This document shows positions 2,317-52,300 of a stretch of DNA of 64,000 nucleotides, piece by piece. Source of the stretch: Chrysomallon squamiferum (taxonomy: Eukaryota; Animalia; Mollusca); assembly GCA_012295275.1 (NCBI GenBank), contig CM022674.1:2728001-2792000 (forward strand). The letters run 5' to 3'. The first letter of the stretch is position 1, and each line of letters opens with the position of its first letter. The notes beneath the pieces were generated by a model that had not been told where the DNA came from, searched no databases, and saw only the letters and a list, made by a program, of their open reading frames with translations. The translations under genes and the position numbers were made by a program.

Positions 2317-4708
2317 CAGAAAATATCTTCTAGTACACAAAAATAAAAATCCTAATATTTATATAGTTGAGACACGTTTATGTACTTATGAATTTGGTAT
2401 GTATATTTATGTACTTGGTACAGATTTGCTAATATTAATTTATATACATGCATTTAAATATTTTGTATATTTTGTTCATATATATCGCTCTCTCTAAGTT
2501 TCTTATGTTAAAGTGTCACAAAACTTTTTGTCTATGATTGTTAGGACAAGACAAGAAAATATATATATAAAACCCTCATAAATTTAACAGTATTTTCTCT
2601 AGTGGTACAAAACATATATTTTTACTTAACCCTGAAGACTGACTATCAGTGACAAAAGTGATTTTTAAAAAAGAAATTTGGTTGCTATTGATGTAGAAAA
2701 TAAATGTTGAAATGTTATTCCATTTGATCTAAGTGTATAATAATACAGTATATATTCTGAAAATAAAGAAATAAAGATGTACAATTAAAAATGCATCACC
2801 ACTATCAGAATTGCATCAATCATTAAATGACACATTGAGCCATCTTTCAATATTGAACTAGCTACCAGTTTCTTTAAGAACACTTAACATTAGTGGTTCT
2901 AATTTTTTAAAATGTTATCAGCTTTAACAGATAATGTTCCAATTTAAATTCATCTTTAAACACTCTGTAATTAATGGCTCATGTTTGTATCTATTCCATT
3001 TTTGTAAGAACCAGTCAGGTACATTTTTTAAGAGTTTATTTTGTCCACAAGACATTCACTTGGACACATGAAGGTATGCTTCATAAAACAAAATAGATTC
3101 ATCTAGTACAGCTTTCATAGGAGATTTAGCATTTATACTACAGTTGTATGATAAGAAAATGTATAGCACAGCAGACAATTTAGATGTTTTACTTTAACAC
3201 TTATGGACATAAACCATAAATCTTGCTGTTCTCTTGTTAACACATAATATATATTTGACAAACATATCTAAATTACTAAAACCCCAGATTTGACAGCCAT
3301 ATAATAATATTGGTTTTATAGTTTTTTCAAACAAATCTGATAGTCGATGATTAAGTTATATTGATCTGCATTTTGTTAATACAGTTTTTGTTTCTGTATA
3401 AATAATGTATCTACACCATATTGTATAATTTGTTGTATCTATTCAAATGCTGTATTATTATTACTATATAGTTTTGCGCTTCTATTCAGCTATTATAATA
3501 CTGTGCATATTTAAGAAATTTTGACCTAAGTTTTACTTTTCACTGAAACACTGTGAAGGATTTATTGCACATATCAGTTTAAAAAGATGTAACTATATGT
3601 TATGGTTCCCTGTAATAAAACAATAGTAAAACCTAAGCTAATTTTGAACAGGTTATTCAGTCGGTGAAAAGTCAAGCAGTTTTTAACTCAGATTTGTTAT
3701 ATTATTCATGATGACTTGATTTATTACTGGTGGTTATATTAGACTGTTTATGTATGAAAATATCTGTTAAATAGGATATAATAATTAAAGCATGTATTTT
3801 AATGTTGAGCACAACATTTTTAATTTATATTTTTTTTTCATTTTATAAAATGCTTGCTTTTTAAAATAAATTTGTATTTTGAAGTAAAATGTAATTTTTC
3901 AATATAGTTATAATTTTAATGTATATTGTACTTTTTTTTACTTTCATTTGTTTTATTGTCAGACAAAATGAAATATCTGCATTTTTTTTTTTACTTGTTA
4001 ATCAGGAGATACATTAACATATTGTTAATATACATATATATATATATGTATGTATGTATACACACACAGATAATAATTATAAAATAGTAGTTAATAGCAG
4101 TTTAAATTAGGAATACCCTTATTTGATGCATAATATTATTTTATTATTTAATATTTCTTTTTGTTGGCTGAGGTAATTTTAGATTTATTAATGATCGTTA
4201 TTAAGGTTCTTATTGCCATTATTATTATTATTATTACTATTATTATTATGAATATTATTATTATTATTACTTTGGAATCTATTCAGTTTATTTATTTATT
4301 TCTTTGTTTGCTTTTACTTTTATCTGTTTAATCATTAGAATATAATGAATGAATTTACATAACAAGATACTTGTACATATTTTTAATTACATGGTTTATT
4401 TTTTGATAATTTGCATGACAGAACGTTTTTGTTACCTTTGTTTTGTGTGTTAACTAATTTTAGATCAAACTTGAACTTAGTTCAAATTATAATTAACTGT
4501 ATCTTTAATTAATAAATGAAAAGGAACAAATCAGGTTTGTTTCTCATTTGTTACACACCCTGTTCTTACAGCTGGATGAACTAATTAAGCCAATTCCAGT
4601 AATGTTAGTGTAATAGTCACCGATGACTTGGTGTTTTTTATTTTATTCTGTTACTAAATACATTGATAATAAAGAATAAAAAATAGGAAGAAGGAAAATT
4701 CTAATTAC

Positions 4709-4742
<34 letters not shown>

Positions 4743-4756
4743 GAAAAATAAATAAT
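2317..4756. repeat. Copy B of the ~2.4-kb tandem duplication
   Basis: Colinear with copy A. Differences include a 10-bp deletion near 2976, extra sequence (atcaggagatacattaac) near 4001 and different microsatellite lengths. Confidence 0.95.
2780..3390 (-). mobile_element. Second copy of the LINE ORF2 relic (duplicated with the 2.4-kb unit)
   Basis: Same motifs as 370-990 (KPILLYGCQIWGF encoded at about 3280-3320), with a 10-bp deletion. Confidence 0.75.
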
Positions 4757-8505: not shown

Positions 8506-8681
8506 AAACAATTCAGATAAAAAAATAAAATATACTGAACTGTTTAAAAAGAAACAAATGTATCAACATTAATCAGATGCATATGCAATAATATTAATAA
8601 TAATAATAATATTTAAAGTATTTTAAACATTTATTAGTAATTTACACTAGTATTTTATAAAACGTTATACAACATTCACAT

Positions 8682-9457
8682 TTAAGGATCAGCTCCATGT
8701 TCCAAAAATAGACAAACTACTTTGGAATGTTCATCATTCATGTATGAATGCTGTTGACAATCATAATTCAGAGCTGTAGGAAAACGAAATTTCACCTCCA
8801 TTGTTCTTAACACCTGTTTTAATCCGTGCTCTCACAATTTCTATTCTTTCATTGTTCAGCTGCTGCATGAAGTACAAACTTGTTACATGTCTGTTAATCT
8901 CATACTAGCTCCACGTTCCAGTAAGTACAGAGCCACTTTGTTCTGTTTGTAGTTTACAGCTGTAAGAAGAGGAGTTTCACCTCTACTGTTTTTACATTTA
9001 CATCGACACCTTTTTTAATCAGACATGTCACAATTTCTACATCTCCCTGCTCAGCTGCTGTGTGTAAAACAGAATTGTTATCACTGTCTGTTAAATTAGG
9101 ATCAGCTCCGTGCTCCAGCAAATACAAAACTACTTTGTTCCTGTTTGTAGCTGACAGCTGTAGAAAGAGCAGTTTTACCTTCACTGTTTATACTGTTCAC
9201 ATTAATACCCTTGTCTACCAGTGCCCTTACAACATCCACATATCCTTTTTCAGCTGCTAGGTGTAAAGCTGAATTCTTATTATTATCTGTAATGTTAATG
9301 TCTGCTCCATTTTCTAGTAAAAACAAAGCTAATTCTTTTCTGTGCTTCTTCATAACTACAGCATCATGAAGTGGAGTTTTTCCCTTACTGTTCACTGCAT
9401 TAATATCAGCACTTCTTTTTACTAGTGTATTCAACAAAGGTAAGTTATCACGCAGGA
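8682..9457 (-). pseudogene. Frameshifted C-terminal ankyrin-repeat array of the NLR-like gene (real decay or assembly indels)
   Basis: Ankyrin repeats continue across frames: SPLHISV/LRDNLPLLNTLVKRSADINAVNSKGKTPLHDAV..., NSALHLAAEKGYVDVVRALVDKGINVN, NSVLHTAAEQGDVEIVTCLIKKGVDVN, GETPLLTAVNYKQNKVALYLLERGA, ...KVVCLFLEHGADP* (TAA 8684-8682). Indels: +1 near 9455, +1 near 9140, -1 near 8990, and more between 8770 and 8890. Minus-strand AATAAA at 8635-8630. Confidence 0.8.
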
Positions 9458-12400
9458 ACTGAAATGTGGAGAGGCGAGTCAGAAGGCAATAGATGCAATC
9501 TTGTCTCTGTTGACCATCGAATCACATCACATGTACAATTTTTATTGACAAGGTTAAACCAATGAATCAGTGTCATATTAACGGCTACATTAGCATTAGG
9601 ATCAGCTCCTTGATCAAGTAGACACTGAACAACATCTGCATTGTTAAACATCACAGCTACTTTCAGTACCTGACTTCTCTTCCAGTTTTTCTCATCTGTA
9701 TCATTTCGTCTCTGGTCAATGAGAAAATTCACTGTGTCAGCAGAACCCCATATAGCTGCTGCTAAAAGAACTTCATCTCTGTTCTCATCATTTAAACAAT
9801 CAGGTTTTACTTTCACTATTTCTTTTATAACATTTGAACTCCTCTGACCAGCGGCAATGACAGCAATGTTTTCAATTTTATTTATTATTTCAATGGTAAA
9901 AAGTTTCTTAAAAAGATGGCTCATGTCAACATCTTTATCAATTAGTGATTTTTTGATATATTTGTCAGAAATCGCGTGACGTACATGTGTATGGAACCTA
10001 ACCAATAAAAGTTTCACAGCCTTTTCTCTGATTTCACATTCGTCTTTTTCAGTATTGATAATGTCAACAACCAAGGAACAGGCTATGTTCATGTTACACG
10101 AATAAATAGAAAGATACAACAACTGTAAGCAATGATTAAATTTTACCCCCTTTTCAAAACATAGCTGTTCTTTGAGTATGGTAACATTATCAGATTCTGA
10201 ACATGCAGCTACACTGAATGTATCAGCTGTTGGCAGAACACCTGACTGTAACAAAAAGCTCACAGCATCTTCATCACCAAACAAACAAGAAATATTCAAA
10301 AGTTCTTTTTTCTGATCTGTAAATTCCATTGTACACATTTTTGATGTGAAATATTTCGACAACATTCTTAGTCCATTTGCAACACACTCACTTGCGACAG
10401 ATGATGAATTTATACTTATTTCTTTAACTTTGAATACTGTCTGAGGCTCAGAATGACTGTCACAGAAATCTACAATTTCGTCAAATAAATCAAGGAAGTT
10501 TTCATCTACCTCACATGCACAAGAATGTTCTATTCTATTCAGTTTCTGATTCAGTATTTCAGACAATTTGCCATAAAAGTGTCTTTCCTCTATCATATAC
10601 TTCACAAATTCTTCATCTTTCAGTGATGGATGTAAAATGATTTCTCTGGCGTTGCTTGATGCCATCAGGTCAGTGAATCTGTGAGCAAGAACATCAAAGC
10701 AGTCTGGTTTCAGTGTCATGGTAATGTGACTTTTGTTAGACACTCCAGGTGTCACAACATATTCTAACAACATGGAGACAGGACAGAATTCTAGCAACTC
10801 TGCTGCTTTCTTTGGAAACTCTGATGAAAAGATCAGAAACAAACAGTCAAACACTGACTGGTGAATAAATGTGTATCTGTTGTCATAAAAATTTAAGTAG
10901 GTACCACACATTACATCAGCTGCTGTCTTTATATGTGTGAGACTTGTGTGTTTCAAACTCAGACAGGCACTCTCCAGCACTCTTACTAATTTCATTATGT
11001 CACTGTCGATGTCATTTTCAAATGGGTTCAGCAAATCAATGCTGAGACTGCCTTGCTGGAACATGATCACCAGCAGAACCAGATAATTGATCTGTGAGGA
11101 CTGATCACTTTTCATATTGTTCAGCTGTTGTGCGAGATATTCTACAGGTTTCTTAAAAAACTCAACTCCTCTTTCTTGTGCATCACTTGAATTAACATAA
11201 TACACACACACCTGAGGGAATCCTAGCTCTGCACATGAACTGACAATGACAGTGTCTTTGTCAATTAGATCCATTTCCATTTTGTTTTTTTCTAGATATC
11301 TGTTTAGAATTATTTTCTTTTCATCATGAAGCAGGCAACAGTCATCACTCTGCAGGTCAAGGAGATGATTCTCATTAAACAGTTCAAACTCCTTCAAACT
11401 GGTTTTACTTTTTGCAAATATTTGATTTCGTAAGGTAATAATACATTTGATAGAACCATCCTGAACAAGACTCAGCACCATTGGAAATTTCAGTTGCCAT
11501 GACGACATGAAATCTGAAATGAGATTAGTCTTACCAAATATGTCATCAATGAGAACAACACATTTCTTATTTCTTGACAGAGAGATGTCATTGAATTCAG
11601 TGTGATGTGTCAGGAAGTAAGATTCTCTTTTCTCTTCATTTTCTATCTGTCTCATTATGCTCAAAGCTAGAGTTGTCTTCCCTGAACCTGGACATCCTAC
11701 TACAATCACAACACCAGTCCTCTGCAAAAGTGTCACACCTCTTTTCTCTGCTCTTGTTTCAACATAGACATTCCAGTCAACAGACTGAATCGTTGATCTG
11801 GTAGACACTGTATCAAAACATGTTAAAAAAATAACATCTATTATAAAGTAAAGTGATTTGAATAGGGTTTTGCTATTTAAATATGTGGCATCAGAATTTG
11901 AAGTTCTTTAAAAAACACAATAGTCTGTTGTCATAATACTTGTTCATCAGAATTTATGAAAACATCAGTGATAAGATTAAAATCAACTAGATGATTATCT
12001 TGTTATTAACGAACATTTTTCTAAACTTGACAAGGAAAAAAATACGTACCTTTAATATTGGATGTTCTTCCATCAATCTTTGCTGAAATAATACATAAAT
12101 AAAACAAGTAAGTTTCTGTTACTGAAAAGTAAACATGAAATATTAATAAAAGTGATCTCTACAAATATTCTGCAGTTTAGTCATAAAATTAAAAGCCTGA
12201 AACATTATTATAGTCTAATTGATTTTACTATAGTTATTACTATTGTCAAACTACTGCCATGGTTGCTGTTTCTTCATAATATTGTTATTTGTTTATTTAT
12301 TGCTATTGCTATTGTTATTGTTCTATATACTTTGTATAATATTTTAATATTTATAGCTGATAATAACGATACTTTTGTATAGTGTTTCAATATTCAGTGG

Positions 12401-12783
12401 TGATAATAATCACAGATATATAGACTGAATTAATGACTTGCATGAAGACAGTCTAGTTCTGTACAACAGTCTGTGTGTCTGCCAGTGGTTCAATGATAAT
12501 GCAAATTTGCACAACTGCATTGAATAATTTTTGAATGGTTTAATAACCTGCAATTTCTGAAAACCTTGTGTGTGAGTGTTTGTGTACGTGTGCATGTATG
12601 TTAGTATATGTTTATGTGTGTAAATGTTCAGAGAAAAGTAAACAGCTATAATAGGAATTTTGAATTGAAACCAGGACATAATTACATTAAAAAAAATTAT
12701 GTGTTTATGTCCTGCATTCAATTCAAAATTTCTATTATAGCTGTTTAGTTTTCTCTGAAATTTTATTTATAAATCATAAACCA

Positions 12784-12826
<43 letters not shown>

Positions 12827-13496
12827 GTTTACATAAGATACCGATAGAAAATTATTAATGATTACTGGGCTGTGTAGTTCTGTTATCTATCAAACTTACA
12901 AAGGAAAGAAAACTTTCAGTTTTTAACTTACTAGTTTTAACAACCTGATCTCCAAGCACAACATTCTTGCCACCATGGATGCTGTAATTGTGAACTGTGT
13001 TAAAAAGAATAATTACAGTTATCATGATGGTAATCAAACAGTAATTAGTGTGTCTTTTGTTTCACACTTTTCAGGTATCAAAACAAACAGGACATGAAAC
13101 TCTTTAAGTTCTTTATTTGTTATCAATATAAGTCAGAAAACTGTGTGTGCAGAAACCAAAGTAATTCTTTGTTTCGTACAACAGTTATAACCATAAAGGC
13201 ATCGAGCATACACTTTGAAGTGAAAGTAAAAGAAAACAGAAATAAATTATAACTCTCTTTTGTCAGAGTGGAACTGTTTGACGTCAAACAATATATTAAA
13301 AAACAGCACTATTATGCACACAAATAAAAAAGTTTTTTAAAATTCTGTTTAGATCTGCCCATCAAAATAGTAAACTACATAGTAGAGAACTACTGTGTTA
13401 TTAATTACCTGTAGGAGATGATTCTCTGGTGTTTTCAGACAAACTAACAGCTGCAGTGTTAGAACTGACTTCTGAATGCTCCTTTTCATCATCCAT
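9448..13496 (-). CDS. NLR-like protein: RHIM-like N-terminus + nSTAND3-type NTPase + ankyrin repeats (847 aa as assembled; about 1100 aa if the 3' frameshifts are errors)
   Basis: Exons 13496-13409 (MDDEKEHSEV...SSPT), 12994-12932 (VHNYSIHGGKNVVLGDQVVKT), 12082-12050 (TKIDGRTSNIK) and 11807-9448. All three introns are GT-AG, phase 1, and join in frame. Motifs: Walker A GCPGSGKT (11697-11674), Walker B VVLIDDIFG, sensor IITLRNQIF, GFP motif, winged-helix YTFIHQSVFD, then ankyrin repeats (VLKVAVMFNNADVVQCLLDQGADPN). Confidence 0.88.
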
Positions 13497-15987
13497 ATTT
13501 GCTGAATAGTAAATTATCAGTTTTAATACAAATCTTACCCTTATATATTATTAATATTACATTTGGTTCTGTAGATAGACTTAAAAACAACATAATCAAT
13601 ATAAAGAGTTAAAAGTTTTAATGAATGTTCTAGTTTTTAAATTGTTAGGTGAGATTCTGTTAAACACAGACACACATACATTTTTTTTTTTTTTTTTTTT
13701 TTTTTTTGGATTCTAGATTATCCTATAAGGAAACCAGCTTAACATGACAGTAAACTTTCAAAAACAAAAAAGACAAACAAAAAAGACCAAAAATATTAAA
13801 AGAAAAGACAATATTGACATCAAATATTTCAAATGCTAAGAGTATTTTGGACCAAAAAATTCCTTTTGATGCTGACTTTGTTGAGTTATTGTATTGCTCA
13901 GAAAACTGAAGCTATCTTCTGACAAGACATGCATATGTGCAGATATATACAAACATCATTGTAAACTGAAAAGAAAAGAAAAATAAATAACTGAAAATGA
14001 AAAGTACTAACTAGCGACTGGGAACTTATTTCTGAATTCACTGTTTAGCTGCTGGTTCTTGTACAGGTCCCAGCCTACTGAGTTAATAAAAATTAGACTT
14101 TGGAAACTGCAACTGCAACAGTGCTTCAGCTATTGTGTCCTTTGCTAAGCACAAAACAATGGGTCACTGATTAAACAGAACAAAATATGCCTGTCTCCTT
14201 TGGTTTTATGGTATCTTTACATAACAGGGAACTAAAGACAGACTTCGAAGAAAAGTTAAATTATAAAGTTCACTGACCGATATTTGTTCTGCTTACAAAT
14301 GAATGTATTGTGTCAAACATTTTATTTGCGCCATTTAAATAGCAGTTAATGGTTATACCTATTTTGAATGTGAACATTCTCATAAAGTTTTCCTTACCTG
14401 GTATGTAATTTCTGTTAAAATGAGCTAATTTGCAGTTTTGGTCAATTAAAAGTAGGATACTTCAAAGATTTAGAGGTAAATGATGCAGTTTATTTGCTGT
14501 GAGCAGGCTGAAATGAGTACGCTTATTGACCAAATAGCACAGTCTGCACACTTCAGGTTTTGCTGATTACAATCTCTTTCGCTCCAAACAATATATTCTG
14601 TGAATCCAAGTTCCTATAATATTGCACAAATAGTGAATAAAAAACTAATAACTTTTTCTTCTTCTTCTTCTTCTTCTTTTTTTCTTGTTAATATCATAAA
14701 TTTCTTACTAAAAATCGGTTTCTTTTTGCTTGAAATTTTTATTAGCACAAGTAGTGAAAATGTCCATAAATGGTCAGATGAGGGGTAACTTTTGTTTTGC
14801 ATTCAAAGCTATATTTCAGTTTCATATATATACAATTTATCACAGCTGGAATTTGAACTGAATTTTGTTTCATGAGTAGAGACATTTTTTTGTCACTAAT
14901 AAGTATCTGCAACACTATACTAGAGTAGACTTCAAGGATAAGCCAAGTTTGTATTTTGTAGAGGATTAGGGTTGAACATCAAATTCTTGAAGTACTTTTA
15001 ACAAATATATACATCACAGTATTTTGTTTTATGCATGTTACCTTTGATTATTTAAAATACATAAAAGTGAAAAATTAAGGTACATGGTAAAGAAGGTTAT
15101 GGTGTGCTGTTTACAGATTTTAACACCTATCTCAGTTTTGGTTTTAAATAGCATTCTGTGTCATTTTAACCAACTTATAATTCAGTGATCAGTATTATGA
15201 CTAAATATTTTAAAAATACAGAATTTCTAACATATCATGTGATAATACAATGTGAAAGAAAGAAAAAACAACAATAACAATAATAATAAATAAATAAAAA
15301 CATAAATAAAAAAATGTAATTCAATAAGGACAAAAATGGGAGATTGGTCACTCTTTAAACTCCTTAAAAAAAGCATTGTGCCAATGTACTTCAGGAATGA
15401 ACACAAGGGGAGACTTCAAAAGCCATTTTCCTCAATTAATGATTCTGAGAAATTCAGCTTTTGACATCACCAAAAGGGTCGTAGCTCAATCAGTTTAAAT
15501 GGTAATTTACTAAGATTTTGGTAGGATTTTTTGTTTGTTTGTTGTTTGTTGTTTTTTGAGTATATCTTCTTTTTAAACTAAAATAAATGAGCTAAAGATA
15601 ATTTCCAACCTCATTTTGATGCCTAGAAAAACCCAGTAACACGCGGAAACAACTTTTGTAAACAAAGTGAAAGTAAATTGACTGATTTGCCTGTCGTTTG
15701 GATTGTTTGTATTTATGTGTTAATTACACGATACGTGTAAACTATTAGAAGTAATAATTAAGTAAATATTTGACTTTTATGTTTTAAATATATTAATGGT
15801 ATGTAATAGTATTATGTAATATTTAGTGTAAAAGAACGAAATTGTTCTTTAAACTATCGGACTTAGTGTCACACTTTCCGAGACAAACGACATCCTAGTG
15901 ACCTATAATTAACATTAATTGTAAATACAGTGATATACTATAACAATTCACACTGAATATGAAGAAATAGATTAAATACAGCCTCAC

Positions 15988-16150
15988 CTCCAAAATAGAA
16001 GCAATTAACTAATCAATTCCTTCTTGTGCTGTCATTTTAATTTGCGATGCGACAACCGTCTAACAACCACCCGACATTTTAATCACGCGTGAATTCTCGA
16101 GATTATTATTTCGTACGGTTACGTCACTGTGTCTGGTTACATGCGATTAC
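15988..16150 (-). promoter_or_regulatory. Candidate first (non-coding) exon and promoter of the NLR-like gene
   Basis: Minus-strand donor GAG|gtgagg at 15987. A locally CpG-rich block holds palindromes TCACGCGTGA (16083-16092) and TCTCGAGA (16095-16102) and a CRE/bZIP-like TTACGTCA (16119-16126). A second donor, CAG|gtaagg at 14397, may end another 5'UTR exon. The ATG exon has an acceptor at 13503-13502, so upstream exons are expected. Confidence 0.4.
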
Positions 16151-16235
16151 ATTCGTTATATGATAATTATTTATTTATTGCCATTCATATCGAGATCAAA
16201 AGCAGTTTAATAAATATCGTTAGACTAAATAAACC

Positions 16236-18577: not shown

Positions 18578-19441
18578 ATGAAGTTTTAATCGTAGCTCTG
18601 TCTTTGACTGTAATCGCCGTTTCAGGTTAGTGTATTCTGTTTATCCGGTGAATATTTCTCATGTGCTCTAAATGAATGTTGTTGTTGCTGATGCTGCTGT
18701 TGTTGTTGTTGTTGGTGGTGGTGGTGTTCCTGTTGTTGTTATTACTGGTATTGTTATTAATGCTTTATGCTTTTCGGATACTCATTCACTCTTGTCGAAG
18801 TGAAACAAATTTCTATTAATAGTACAAAGCGTAAACATTTAATAAAGTATTACTGGTATAAATGATAATTAAATATTGGACCATGTATCCATTGATGTAA
18901 AATATTGTTAGACTTCTTTTCTTGGTATGATCGTAATTTCATGTAAATTTAATAACGTATTTATTTTGTACAGTATACAGACAAACGTTTGTAGCGTAAC
19001 GTGAATTTTATAGCGTATTTATTTTGGTACATTATACAGTGAAACGTGCATAACGTAACGTGAATTTTTTCACGTATTTTTTTGTACAGTATACAGTGAA
19101 ACGTTCATAACGTAACGTGAATTTTATAACGTATTTTTTTGTACAGTATACAGTGAAACGTGCATAACGTAACGTGAATTTTATCACGTTTTTTTGTTTT
19201 GTTTTTGTACAGTATACAGTGAAACGTGCACCTCGGTGCAGGATTGTGTTGTTACTGGATGCAGCTCAGGAGGGCAGCTTGTTTGCGATGATGAAGGGAA
19301 ATGCACGTGCATGACTTCTCACACCTGCACAGACGGAGAGAACGTCGGTGGTAAGACAAGATTTTGCGTTTTTCCTTCTTTATTTGTGTTTTTATTATCA
19401 TGTTTTTTTTGTTTTTTTTATATATATATTTTTTTTCTTCT

Positions 19442-19594: not shown

Positions 19595-20185
19595 GACACA
19601 CACACAAACTTAGTATTTTGTGTGCATGTGTTTTATATGATAATTAAGAATACACATAACTCAATATATATTATTCTTTTTTCTCTTTACGCATTTTTAT
19701 TTTTAAAATTTTTAATTTCTTGAATTATTTATTTATTTATTTATTATTTTGGTTGTTGTTGTTTTTGTTGTGTTTTTTTTTTTGATGTGGGTTTTTCTTC
19801 AGAGTAAACACTGTTATTTACAATCACTTGCAGTATCATGTCGAAGTGCCAGAACATGCAAGCAGTGGTACGACTCGACAAGCGATCACAACTGCGAATG
19901 TGCTGACACTCACAATTTACACTGCATCGACGGCCAGTGCAAATGTGGCTACCCTCCAAACTGTTAGTGGTTTTAGCGTCGCCAATCTCAGTCCTTTCAT
20001 AACGTTCATCATTACTCCTAGGACAGTCTTATTTCGATCATATCTGTCTCACTGTTTCTGTCACTTCGTCCGTCCGTTTCTTTATGTCTGTTTGTGTTTT
20101 ACCATCCTCCTGTGTCCGTCTGTCTATCAGGCTGTTTCTCTTTTTTTTTCCATACTGGTCAGAACATCTGTTTGTCTCTCAGTCA

Positions 20186-21653: not shown

Positions 21654-21706
21654 GTACGTGATCATTTTAAACTGCCACTTGTTCTTACAGACACGGTACC
21701 TTCACC

Positions 21707-22569
21707 ATGAAGTTTGCAGTTGTTCTTGTACTGGCTATTGTCCTGGTCGTAGGTAGGTAATACACGTCATATATACCACACGCACACACATACATACATA
21801 TATAATTATATTTATTTAATTATTTTGTAATATTTTCTGTCGTACCGAATGAAATAATTAACACCATTAAAAATAATACAGGATTAAAACATTCAAAAAT
21901 AATATAGTATTAACACAGTTTAAAAATGTCAATCTTAAACAACATTTGCTGATATCGTTCCTAATTTTCTAAGTGGTGAACAATTTTGGCTGTCAAGATT
22001 AATTAATATATATATTTTTTTGTGATGAATATATAAGAGCGTCATATTTTTTTGTTGCATTGGAATGATTAATAAAACTAACTAAACGATTTTAAATTTC
22101 TTATGTACCACTAAATGTTTAGGATAATGCACATTTCATTCTTAAATCACGTTTTTTTGTGTGTGTGGGGGGAATTCTTCTTTTTTGCAAAGTGATAGTA
22201 AAAGTTTTATTATTATTATACATTGTTGTGTTTCTATGGCATGAATGCACCAAAGAAGGCCTATTAAAACACATCACATTTTCTAAAACGTTACATGAAC
22301 TATCCGATCTAAAAATATTAAATTTTATACATAATCAAAGCTTTACCTACTAAATGTTATTATCATTACTCTTCCTATTACTTCTGCTAGTACTACTGTC
22401 ACTGCAATTTTAAACCTCTCTATAGAAAATATTAATCTAAATCTTCATTTGAGCAACAACAAATATCAAATTTTACACATACAATTTATCCATAGTATCT
22501 CAAAGCGTGATAATAATGTAATAATTTAAAAAGCACAGGAGCTGAAGAAATGATACTATTTATTTTATT

Positions 22570-22604
<35 letters not shown>

Positions 22605-23165
22605 TTTGTTTGTTTGTTTGTTTATTTATCTATCTATCTATCTGCTTGTTTAATTATTTATATGTTTCTTTATTTGTTTGTTTATCTATATATCTATCCA
22701 TCTGTTTGTTTATTTATTTATATATTTAGCTGTTTGTTTATTTGTTTGTTTGTTTATTTGTTTGTTTGTTTATTTGTTTATTTGTTTATTTATTTGTTTA
22801 TTTATATATTTATTTGTGTTTTATTTATTTATTTATTTATTTGTTTATTTATTTATTTGTTTGTTTGTTTGTTTGTTTATTTGTTTGTTTGTTTGTTTAC
22901 AGTGAACTCAGAGACGTGTAAAACGGTTCACGACTGTGTTGTGACTGGATGCGCGTCTGGTGGAAATCTTGTGTGCGATGATGAAGGACGATGCACGTGC
23001 GAAACCTCTCACACGTGCACTGATGGTGAAAACGTAGGAGGTAAATAAGAATTACTACTACTACCACTACCACCACTACAACTACTACCACTACTACTAC
23101 TACTACTGCTACTACTACTACTACTGCTACTACTGCTACTACTACTGCTACTGCTACTGCTACTG

Positions 23166-23765: not shown

Positions 23766-24479
23766 GCTACTACTACTACTGCAACTACTACTACTCTTAC
23801 TACTGCTGCTACTACTACTACTGCTGCTACTACTACTACTGCTACTACTATTACAAACTACTACTATTTGCAGTGAACTGTCACAGTGGAAGACACTGCA
23901 GAACGTGGTACGAGACGACACCGTCTCACAACTGTGAGTGTGCTGACACGCACAGCCTCCACTGCATTGACGGCAAATGTAAATGTGGTTACCCTTCAAA
24001 CTGTAAGTACCTCTTTCTACGCTTCTAGTTAAGCATTATACAAAACTATATATTTCTTCCAAGAACTGACGAACAATAGTAAAGAAACTGAGCACAAAAC
24101 GCGGAGTCATAGAATACAAGATAAGGAATATTTATATATTTCGCCACTCGCTCTTTAATTGAATCATATTAGGTCAGATAAGGAATGATAAACGATATGA
24201 TGTCATTGTCAGTGAGGAAAATTTAATAAGTGTGTGTGGTTGGTTCTTAACTAGGTTTGTCACTGTAGTAAAAATAAAATTAAAAATTTAAAAAAAATTA
24301 AAATTAAAAATTACAAAAATTGTTCGTGATTCATTCAGGAAGGAAAACCAAACATTGCATACTTTATTATTAACATAGTTTATTATATTATAATGAATCG
24401 ATCATTTGGATGTATAATTATGATTTGGCTTTACAAACATATATGCTACTCAGAATAGTATTTCTACTTATTTTATTAA

Positions 24480-48869: not shown

Positions 48870-50454
48870 AACAAAAAACAAACATATATATTATTAAAGT
48901 TTTAATAGTTCTTTTTTTCTTCTTTTTTTCAGAAACAAGACGATCCAAAAAGCAATCAGTGTCACTGAACATTCCTGGGTGAATTATTGTGCCTAATATT
49001 CAATATCTGCTACTTTTTTTTTTTCCTGTGTTGAAGTGTCGACGAATATGTTTTTTACATATTACTGTGCCTTCACAAGAATATTGGATTTTCATATAAA
49101 ACTGCTCACACTACCCATATCAATATCAGTTACAGACACACATATTGTTTTGGAGTAAGTAATGACACAGTGTTTTATGGATACTGACGCCACGAAGAAA
49201 TATCTTGTGTCTAATACGGTAACAGAGAAGTTGGAATTTTATTTGCTAATAAGAGTATTCTTCAGTCGTAAGTTAGCTTAGTTTTGAAACTAGATACAAC
49301 GCCAGCGATCGTAATTGCGAATCCCGTTGTGTAAACTGTGAAGCACATTTTATGACGTAAAAACTGGAGACAAGATTTTTTTTTTTTTTTTAATTACGAA
49401 GGATCCGAGATTTAAATAAGAAGCTCGTTTATTAGTCAAATTATTTCAAGACGAGTGTGCGGGTTCGTTAAAAAAGAGAGTTTTAGACTGTTGAGTGCAG
49501 AGCGGATTCTTGATACAATTTTAACTCTTGAGTTTGACAGACAGTATTTGTGTTACCAAGAACCCCAAAAAAAAACGGCAGCGTATGACTTCAACGACGA
49601 CGGTGTACGTCATCAGGTATATTAAAAATAAAATCAAGTTTAATTTGGCACGATATTCCTTTTACCAGGCATCAGAAAAAAAAAAGAAGTAAAAAAAAAA
49701 AAAATAAATAAATATAATAAAAAGTAAAGATTCCCCTATGGTAAAATAAACATTCTGGTTACGAATTATCAAAATTAAGAGAGTGTTTTTTTTAGAATAC
49801 CGCAGCTGTGACTGCTGGAAGCAAAACGAGGTCTGTTTCTTAAAAAAAAGACAAACTACTTTCCGGTTACAAAACACTGAGAGAGAGAGAGAGCGAAAAA
49901 AAAAAAAAAAAAAAAAAAAAAACATTCTTCAGGCAGATAGGGATAGCTAATATTTTTACTTAAGAAAAAACAACACTCGTATTAGCAAATACCAAAACAG
50001 ATTTCTTGTCTCAGTGAAAAAGTACGATTCTTGAAACAAAACACAAACAAAATAAAAAATAAAATCATTTTCAAACACTATTCATATATTCAGCACGATT
50101 CATTTTCTGTGAAAGGTAAATATACTTCTGTCACCAAGAACCAAATCGAGGAAGAAGATTCTGGATGAAAGTCACCAAGGACGAAATCGGGCGAGATTTT
50201 CTATGAAGAACAACAAACCTCCTTGTCACCAGCAGTGTGGTCCACGTGGCGGTTGTGACGTGAAACGTGGCTGTTTGCTGGGTCAGTTCTAATCTCAATG
50301 AAATCTGCTTTGATGTTTCCACCGTGGAAAATGTTTTCTCAGACATCCACTGCGGCCTGCCTGTCTGGAATTTGGTGAGTACTTTTTTTTAATTTTATTA
50401 TTATTATTATTTTTTTTTTAAACTAATTGTTGTAAACAAACAGTGAATCCTAAA

Positions 50455-52300
50455 TACAGGTCGATTCCCGTATTATACAACTGTTATAGGTCGATTCTTC
50501 TATCGCATAGCTGGTATAGGTCGAATGTTGTATAATATAGCTGCTATAGGTCCACTTGTATATCACATAGCTAATAGAGGTCGACTCCTGTATCACATAT
50601 CTATTAGAGGTCGACTTGTGTATCACATATCTATTAGAGGTCGACCTGTGTATCACATAGCTGTTAGAGGTCGACTTGTATATCACATAGCTGTTAGAGG
50701 TCGACTCCTGTATTACATAGCTGTTAGAGGTCGACTTGTATATCACATAGCTGTTAGAGGTCGACTCCTGTATCACATAGCTTTTAGAGGTCGACTTGTA
50801 TATCACATAGCTGTTAGAGGTCGACTTGTATATCACACAGCTGTTAGAAGTCGACTTGTAAATCACACAGCTGTTAGAGGTCGACTTGTATATCACATAT
50901 CTGTTAGAGGTCGACTTGTGTATCACATAGCTGTTATAGGTCGACTGTTGTATCACACAGCTGATATAGGTCCACTTGTATATCACATAGCTGATATAGG
51001 TCGACTTGTATATCACATAGCTGTTAGAGGTCGACTTGTTTATCACATAGCTGTTAGAGGTCGACTTGTTTATCACATAGCTGGTACAGGTCGACTTGTA
51101 TATCACATAGCTGTTAGAGGTCGACTTGTATATCACATATCTATTAGAGGTCGACTTGTATATCACATAGCTGTTAGAGGTCGACTTGTATATCACATAT
51201 CTGTTATAGGTCCACTTGTATATCACATAGCTGTTAGAAGTCGACTTGTGTATCACATATCTGTTAGAGGTCGACTTGTATATCACATAGCTGTTAGAAG
51301 TCGACTTGTGTATCACATATCTGTTAGAGGTCGACTTGTATATCACATAGCTGTTAGAAGTCGACGTGTGTATCACATATCTGTTAGAGGTCGACTTGTA
51401 TATCACATAGCTGTTAGAAGTCGACTTGTGTATCACATAGCTGGTACAGGTTGACTCCTGTATCACATAACTGGTATAGATCGACTGTTGTATCACATAG
51501 CTGGTATAGGTCGACTGTTGTATCACATAGCTGTTATATGTCGACTGTTGTATCACATAGATGTTATAGGTCGACTGTTGTATCACATAGCTGTTATAGG
51601 TCGACTGTTGTATCGCATAGATGTTATAGGTCGACTGTTGTATCACATAGCTGTTATAGGTCGACTCTTGTATCACATAGTTGGTATATGTCGACTGTTG
51701 TGTCACATAGCTGTTATAGGTCGACTGTTGTATCGCATAGCTGTTACAGATCGACTGTTGTATCACATAGCTGTTATAGGTCGACTGTTGTATCACATAC
51801 CTGTTATAGGTCGACTGTTGTATCACATAGCTGTTATATGTCGACTGTTGTATCACATAGCTGTTATATGTCGACTGTTGTATCACGTACCTGTTATGGG
51901 TCGACTGTTGTATCACGTAGCTGTTATAGGTCGACTGTTGTATCACGTAGCTGGTATCCGAACATTTATAGAAAATACAGTGTTGTTTTCCAGACATGGT
52001 ACATAATGACTGACGTATCACATAATTTTAAAAATTTGTACTTGTCCACTGTTGTATTATAGAGATGGAACACTATTGTATCACAGATGTGGTACGCTTG
52101 GACTGTCGTATCACCGAAATAGTTGTATCACAGAATTAGTGTAGGAGCAATGTTGTATCACGAAAAAATACGGTCAGACTGTTGTATCTCAGAAATGGTA
52201 CAGATCACCTGTTGTATCATAAATATAGCACAAGCTCGATTGTTGTACCATCAGTTGATATGGATCAATTTTTGTATCACAGAGATGGTACAGGTTCACT
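50455..52300. repeat. 30-bp minisatellite (~50 regular units, 50455-51960) with a degenerate tail to ~52300
   Basis: Unit GTCGACTTGTATATCACATAGCTGTTAGAG on the left and GTCGACTGTTGTATCACATAGCTGTTATAG on the right. Strict 30-bp phase, no spacers. Confidence 0.97.

Follow-up and report, generated by a model that had tools for sequence, protein, structure and literature searches.

The gene on the reverse strand of the window (the whole 64,000-nucleotide stretch of Chrysomallon squamiferum DNA analysed here) is a real member of a family of nSTAND3-ankyrin NLR-type receptors that has expanded in molluscs. We consider the chance somewhat better than even that the N-terminal signalling element of this copy is an amyloid motif of the cryptic-RHIM type, supplied by a small exon. 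At the level of the family, comparison of the sequences makes an amyloid-type signalling motif likely. What makes the finding valuable is the family, of which this copy is a truncated member with a weak motif.

Identity of the receptor

Pfam analysis of the large exon gave an nSTAND3 match of 83.1 bits against a cut-off of 27.2, and ankyrin repeats were present. What we take, from general STAND anatomy, to be Walker A (11697), Walker B, the sensor-1 T-x-R, the GxP motif and the winged-helix His were all intact. An AlphaFold model of 430 residues (pLDDT 93) had an NBD-helical-winged-helix fold, the fold matches of which were NB-ARC (NRC1), Avs5, NLRP (NLRP2), MalT, SAMD9 and Apaf-1. The top PADLOC match was PDC-S73 (E 1.6e-10), and a PDB search with the NTPase alignment had ankyrin matches among the matches listed. 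The closest homologues were Gigantopelta aegis proteins (44-47% identity), followed by those of Haliotis and bivalves. The first-pass annotation had described an nSTAND3-ankyrin NLR-like receptor; the Pfam match and the AlphaFold fold support the STAND identity, whereas the ankyrin sensor is truncated here.

Structure of the gene

Joining four reverse-strand segments in silico (13496-13409, 12994-12932, 12082-12050 and 11807-9448) produced an open frame of 847 codons, in which all three introns were phase 1 with AG/GT ends. The proposal that a 63-nt exon and other small phase-1 exons lie in frame with the NTPase exon was therefore borne out from the sequence. The predicted first coding exon (13409-13501, reverse strand) contains an ATG at 13496 (A at -3 and G at +4) that is closely preceded by in-frame stops, and encodes a polar/acidic linker for which conservation in homologues was undetectable. 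The 63-nt RHIM/cRHIM-like motif exon (12932-12994, reverse strand), the splicing of which is predicted from the splice scan and the frame, was phase 1-1 and free of stops; its acceptor is a pyrimidine-rich ACAG and its donor is GTAAGT. It is followed by a 33-nt phase 1-1 exon (12050-12082, reverse strand), encoding a conserved pre-NTPase segment that could be aligned to 7/7 Gigantopelta relatives. The large exon (9448-11807, reverse strand) encodes the nSTAND3 NTPase, a helical region and approximately three ankyrin repeats, and ends in a stop at 9450-9448.

Both strands of the 64 kb were scanned with simple splice scores for phase-1, symmetric, stop-free candidate exons. Just 12 candidates passed. 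Three of them, 12994-12932, 12082-12050 and 13568-13539, lie in the 1.8 kb preceding the NTPase exon; the 88 coding nucleotides of the first exon did not qualify. Two weaker alternative acceptors were found for 12082-12050. The predicted segment at 13539-13568 (reverse strand), separated from the first exon by a 37-nt gap, may be a separate phase 1-1 exon of 30 nt or may belong to the 5′ end of the first coding exon; it had gone unmentioned in the first-pass annotation. Two further reverse-strand features are predicted only: a candidate non-coding 5′ exon with a strong donor and no ATG (14398-14496) and a CpG-rich candidate first exon or promoter region (15988-16160). A longer N-terminal domain upstream was not supported, as there was no suitable open frame and in-frame stops lay 5′ of the ATG. 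The best model predicted from these data is a 62-residue N-terminus without a folded domain, because the context of the ATG at 13496 is good, in-frame stops precede it and the farther-upstream candidate exon has no ATG. Given the predicted splicing, the motif occupies residues 33-44 of this polar 62-aa N-terminus. No folded effector domain was present in it, which agrees with the earlier description of an N-terminus without a death fold or TIR domain.

The motif had also been proposed to lie on a skippable exon. Skipping is unsupported because the small exons are all phase 1-1 and none of eight pairs of annotated isoforms compared, from four homologous loci, dropped the motif alone. One long Haliotis isoform was without the entire N-terminal 820 residues. 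Three short Haliotis rufescens isoforms (P0159, P0160 and P0163; 198-219 aa) kept the N-terminal motif and were missing the NTPase; these may be soluble decoys or adaptors, or may reflect annotation noise.

A RHIM-like motif without glutamine

The core motif, YSIHGGKNVVLG (12951-12986, reverse strand), has aliphatic positions 1, 3, 9 and 11 followed by Gly, with a VxxG core. Counted from the Gly, Y, I, V and L lie at G-11, G-9, G-3 and G-1, the same spacing as RIPK1 Y531/I533/I539/I541/G542 as given in a preprint, which upholds the gap-free alignment to RIPK1 that had been claimed. A mutational scan described in that preprint (10.64898/2026.02.19.706818) found Y531, I533, I539 and I541 of RIPK1 and their RIPK3 equivalents to be needed for nucleation. 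The tetrad plus Gly occurred in 141/20000 shuffles of the 62-aa N-terminus (0.7%), and 5/8 features of an 8-feature RHIM score were present; the p values for these two tests, 0.007 and 0.034 respectively, are modest and were computed after the motif had been selected in the first-pass annotation. Among 270 loose pseudo-exon frames of the window three fitted the tetrad pattern, the motif exon and two others.

Protostome cRHIMs are described as having a VxxG core (PMC13506858, PMC10268257), which the VVLG of the motif fits, including the conserved Gly, although a four-letter pattern has low specificity. The shrimp IMD core is VHIG, compared with VHVG in the close homologue P0014. As the first-pass annotation had stated, the core Gln is replaced by Val and the downstream Asn is absent: VVLG does not conform to the canonical (V/I)-Q-(V/I/L/C)-G, and the downstream Asn-x-apolar strand, present in three Solemya homologues, is missing. 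The window peptide matched 0 families in Pfam, so that the suggested check against a RHIM profile went against the motif, and a PDB search with the peptide alone returned no match. At E up to 10, with the HMMER filters on, none of 17 motifs matched the Pfam RHIM family. A four-copy complex prediction for 30 residues, of which 20 were from the exon and 10 were intron-encoded, gave an uninformative score of 0.02. The description as RHIM-like thus holds for the tetrad plus Gly and the VxxG core, but not for the Gln and Asn. Because these are missing and there was no Pfam or PDB match, the motif is not a canonical RHIM; judged by its sequence, it may work like one.

Related motifs across molluscs

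A total of 1050 cluster representatives were obtained at E <=0.001, of which the best 150, together with five from another search, made up the 155 homologues examined; the 79 with at least 30 residues before the NTPase supplied the N-termini tested. A quick tree placed the window in a clade with seven Gigantopelta proteins (SH-aLRT 99). A similar gap-free motif was picked by eye in the same slot in six of these seven closest relatives, lying 15-75 residues before the NTPase in otherwise unalignable linkers and having cores such as VQFG, VHVG and VQIP. Similar motifs were also picked in unionid and scallop clades. On the tree, the motif label required 7 changes versus 15.6 when shuffled. Comparison of the motif exon with the seven closest homologues gave a combined p of 0.022 (uncorrected), and it was the sole one of six N-terminal pieces below 0.05 (the other five, p 0.29-0.98); against all 79 N-termini the value was p 0.21.

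In four Solemya proteins, a blind search for a shared motif returned x-Q-[IVL]-G, with 0/60 shuffles at width 12 and 2/60 at width 16. The pattern Q-h-G-x-x-N-x-h was found in 3/79 N-termini, all from Solemya, in 0/2000 shuffles and nowhere in 84,751 downstream residues. In six Gigantopelta proteins a blind search at width 16 placed four in register (3/60 shuffles), and in the window, which had been held out, the best site was its motif (39 vs 18); at width 12 the Gigantopelta search settled on other sites. Across the 79 N-termini, RHIM scores of at least 8 bits were reached by five versus 1.29 expected (3/300), and a looser tetrad pattern by 11 versus 5.7 expected (25/1000). The strict tetrad pattern was not enriched (2 versus 1.08 expected; 296/1000 shuffles), de novo EM over the same N-termini did not converge on the motif, and an automated search started from the motif of the window was not above chance (16/100 shuffles). 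A profile of 16 hand-picked homologue motifs ranked the motif site top of 50,560 stop-free 17-mers, a rank that is inflated because the training motifs were chosen by eye for resemblance; just 3/63 of the remaining N-termini reached p 0.05 with it. Conservation in nSTAND3 relatives, a check put forward in the first-pass annotation, is seen as same-slot motifs in Gigantopelta and Solemya, while several blind tests were non-significant.

The null results de novo, with the strict pattern and with the seeded search bear on the possibility that the resemblance is due to chance, the exon being a drifting linker and the homologue motifs a product of selection by eye. The modest window p values and the two additional pseudo-exon frames point the same way. 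We regard this explanation as unlikely, since the motif was recovered by blind searches inside two NTPase-defined clades, it clusters on the tree, the Solemya signature was never produced by shuffling, and the neighbouring N-terminal pieces had no comparable match to homologues.

An alternative in which the exon is real but its motif forms no amyloid, being instead a hydrophobic beta-strand patch of a generic kind for docking on the receptor itself (autoinhibition) or on a partner, or a short linear motif, was judged just as improbable as chance. It would account for the absence of a Pfam RHIM match and for the diversity of the homologue motifs (mean column identity 24%). A profile of 17 motifs had 6JPD, a mouse RIPK3 RHIM fibril, among its five matches in 177,635 PDB sequences, at a non-significant E of 6.2, and it also matched beta-helix carbonic anhydrases and an endoglucanase; these latter matches favour the docking reading. 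Against such a patch are the Solemya members with a fuller RHIM signature (Gln, Gly and Asn) and the gap-free spacing identical to the RIPK aliphatic tetrad; diversity is also described for receptor-side amyloid motifs (PMC7889193, PMC12881547). We conclude that some clades of the family, probably including that of the window, have genuine RHIM-like motifs, and a fair reading is that the version in this copy lies at the weak end of the family.

In other homologues, inspection by eye suggested different occupants of the same N-terminal slot: a caspase-like domain in P0018 and folded death-like domains in P0051, P0060 and P0066. P0018, a Haliotis nSTAND3-type receptor, has an apparent N-terminal caspase domain with QSCRG, an all-in-one form. 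Two types of short Gly/Asn/Val/Ile-rich motif, both non-RHIM-like by score, were also seen in this slot, one in P0036, P0037, P0038 and P0043 and the other in P0004, P0005, P0029, P0030 and P0034 (P0004, P0005 and P0037 are named Haliotis); they are candidates for new amyloid motif classes.

RNA contigs and truncation of this copy

Four sequencing runs, three RNA runs from one study plus a run designated X5, were compared with the region 8660-14620. The intron 11808-12049 was spliced in contigs of 3/3 RNA runs (one study) and unspliced in X5; this joint belongs to paralogue transcripts, because the contig letters were divergent. Of the three junctions that had been put forward for checking, 12050/11807 was thus present, in paralogue RNA contigs, and 13409/12994 and 12932/12082 were absent among the 15 joints listed (118 further joints existed). 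The X5 contigs covered the introns almost without differences. That 1479/1963 of them were <95% alike points to many paralogues, and the gene is one member of a large paralogue family, which the first-pass annotation had not recognised. Near-identical RNA contigs had a depth of 2-6, introns included. One X5 contig joined 13585 back to 12324 at a depth of 206, with only 33 letters on the short side; such a joint would be expected if the block carrying the motif exon (12324-13585) were tandemly duplicated in a paralogue.

The end of the open reading frame (9450-9448) falls inside an ankyrin repeat, after approximately three repeats, and more repeats continue in shifted frames to approximately 8860, a truncation overlooked in the first-pass annotation. 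In this decayed ankyrin-repeat tail (8860-9447, reverse strand) the frame shifts three times or more, near 9455, 9130 and 8985, and further stops are present. A full C-terminal repeat sensor was not found in this copy, which encodes 847 aa compared with 1087-1963 aa in the close homologues used for mapping. One base was missing at 9455 in contigs of all four runs. An assembly error at this position was considered; depth subtraction indicated that an X5 contig (depth 47) would match the window letters without the one-base deletion of the paralogues. It may be that X5 represents the source sample, and a single indel deeper in the tail may be allelic or an error. The 2.36-kb exon was open versus several lesions in the 0.6-kb tail, and this confinement of the lesions to the tail suggests that the upstream frame was maintained after truncation. 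The truncated copy could act as a helper or decoy, or could be a gene in recent decay.

If the family signals as proposed, this copy could still be a dead pseudogene, with its motif, now without the Gln, a decaying relic. The frameshifted tail, a terminal branch of 0.75 that is the longest in its clade, and the absence of own-copy spliced RNA among the joints listed are in keeping with this, but the 2.36 kb exon and the three small exons carry no lesion, and the STAND motifs and splice sites are intact. We rate it as improbable, slightly more so than either chance or a docking patch.

Other features of the window

On the forward strand, two paralogous genes lie in tandem, in head-to-head orientation to the nSTAND3 gene (19213-19350, 19865-19968, 21691-21756, 22903-23040 and 23905-24008). 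They encode small, secreted proteins rich in cysteine, with a signal-peptide-like exon and two Cys-rich exons. One of these exons was checked against Pfam and had no match. A tandem array with a 30/60-nt period and several open frames (50453-52027) is probably a minisatellite. The segments 1-2316 and 2411-4756 form a direct repeat of approximately 2.4 kb with 95% identity.

Putative signalling mechanism

By general STAND biology, the NTPase would be released, and oligomerisation driven, once the repeat region binds a ligand. The nSTAND3 ring would then cluster the motifs, by analogy with NWD2/HET-S and PNT1/HELLP, bringing them together on flexible linkers so that a cross-beta stack could nucleate and serve as the template for the matching motif of a separate adaptor. 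Our guess is that the partner would more likely be an IMD/RIPK1-like adaptor than an MLKL-type pore former, because MLKL was undetected in molluscs (PMC11476962) and protostome cRHIM amyloids are described as signalling through IMD to Relish (PMC13506858, PMC10268257). No effector with a matching motif was found within the 64-kb window. Homologue searches, which are insensitive for motifs of 12-20 residues, returned 11 candidates with the frame of the motif exon, none at E 10, and three with the motif region of P0016, none matching; the ESM Atlas, equally insensitive at this length, gave no usable match with the P0092 motif.

Amyloid-templating NLRs are established in fungi and bacteria. We put it at a little less than an even chance that molluscs run such a system at scale, through a gastropod and bivalve nSTAND3-ankyrin family with diversified RHIM/cRHIM-like motifs on small phase-1 exons, interchangeable with caspase/death-type domains, each motif class templating its own adaptor. 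If true, this would provide a testable animal NLR family that signals by amyloid with motifs beyond the canonical RHIM, and would bear on a question left open in PMC7889193. The family offers a graded motif series, from a near-canonical RHIM in Solemya to the Gln-less version of this gene, as short peptides for fibril and cross-seeding tests. It bears on whether metazoans use any signalling amyloid other than the RHIM, and on the role of amyloid signalling in animals reported to have no MLKL.

Relation to known systems

A literature search for RHIM paired with nSTAND3 found no paper (subscription papers lay outside its coverage). Among the matches listed, no nSTAND3 paper concerned animals by title and none described mollusc STAND proteins with such motifs, and the accessible parts of PMC8195603 and PMC12261475 do not describe a mollusc RHIM-nSTAND3 architecture. 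In the literature searched, animal amyloid-templating NLRs were represented only by an in silico remark on one amphioxus protein.

The bacterial Avs5 (10.1101/2025.07.08.663546; PDB 9JAP), which ranked third among the fold matches, likewise has an nSTAND3 NTPase with C-terminal helical repeats, but is described as carrying a fused Sir2 enzyme effector and TPR-type repeats. Mammalian RIPK1/RIPK3 RHIMs, as given in the preprint cited above, share the identical spacing of the aliphatic tetrad and Gly; in contrast, the motif here is missing the core Gln and the C-terminal Asn strand and is not joined to a kinase, and MLKL is unreported in molluscs in the literature available. The cRHIMs of protostomes (Drosophila PGRP-LC/LE and IMD; shrimp SRB2 and IMD) likewise have a Gln-less VxxG core and are described as signalling by amyloid, although the receptors are PGRPs or scavenger receptors (PMC13506858, PMC10268257) whereas here the receptor is a STAND NTPase.

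In the fungal pairs NWD2/HET-S and PNT1/HELLP, oligomerisation of the receptor is described as folding a short motif into an amyloid seed that converts the effector (PMC7889193, PMC12881547). These fungal systems and the bacterial BASS-NLR/Bell pairs have, like the gene described here, a short N-terminal amyloid-type motif without a folded signalling domain; in contrast to the window, where no such gene was found, the gene for the effector with the matching motif is reported to be adjacent.

The closest animal parallel in architecture is BF82280 of amphioxus (Branchiostoma floridae), a RHIM-NACHT-repeat protein noted in silico only (Kajava et al. 2014, PMC4262963). Because this protein had already been noted, an animal RHIM-NTPase-repeat architecture is not new. 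Both combine an animal RHIM-type motif, in the usual position of the death fold, with a STAND NTPase and C-terminal repeats. They differ in that BF82280 has a NACHT and is from a deuterostome, whereas the receptor described here has an nSTAND3 NTPase and belongs to an expanded mollusc family, in which the motifs are diverse, often Gln-less and encoded on small phase-1 exons.
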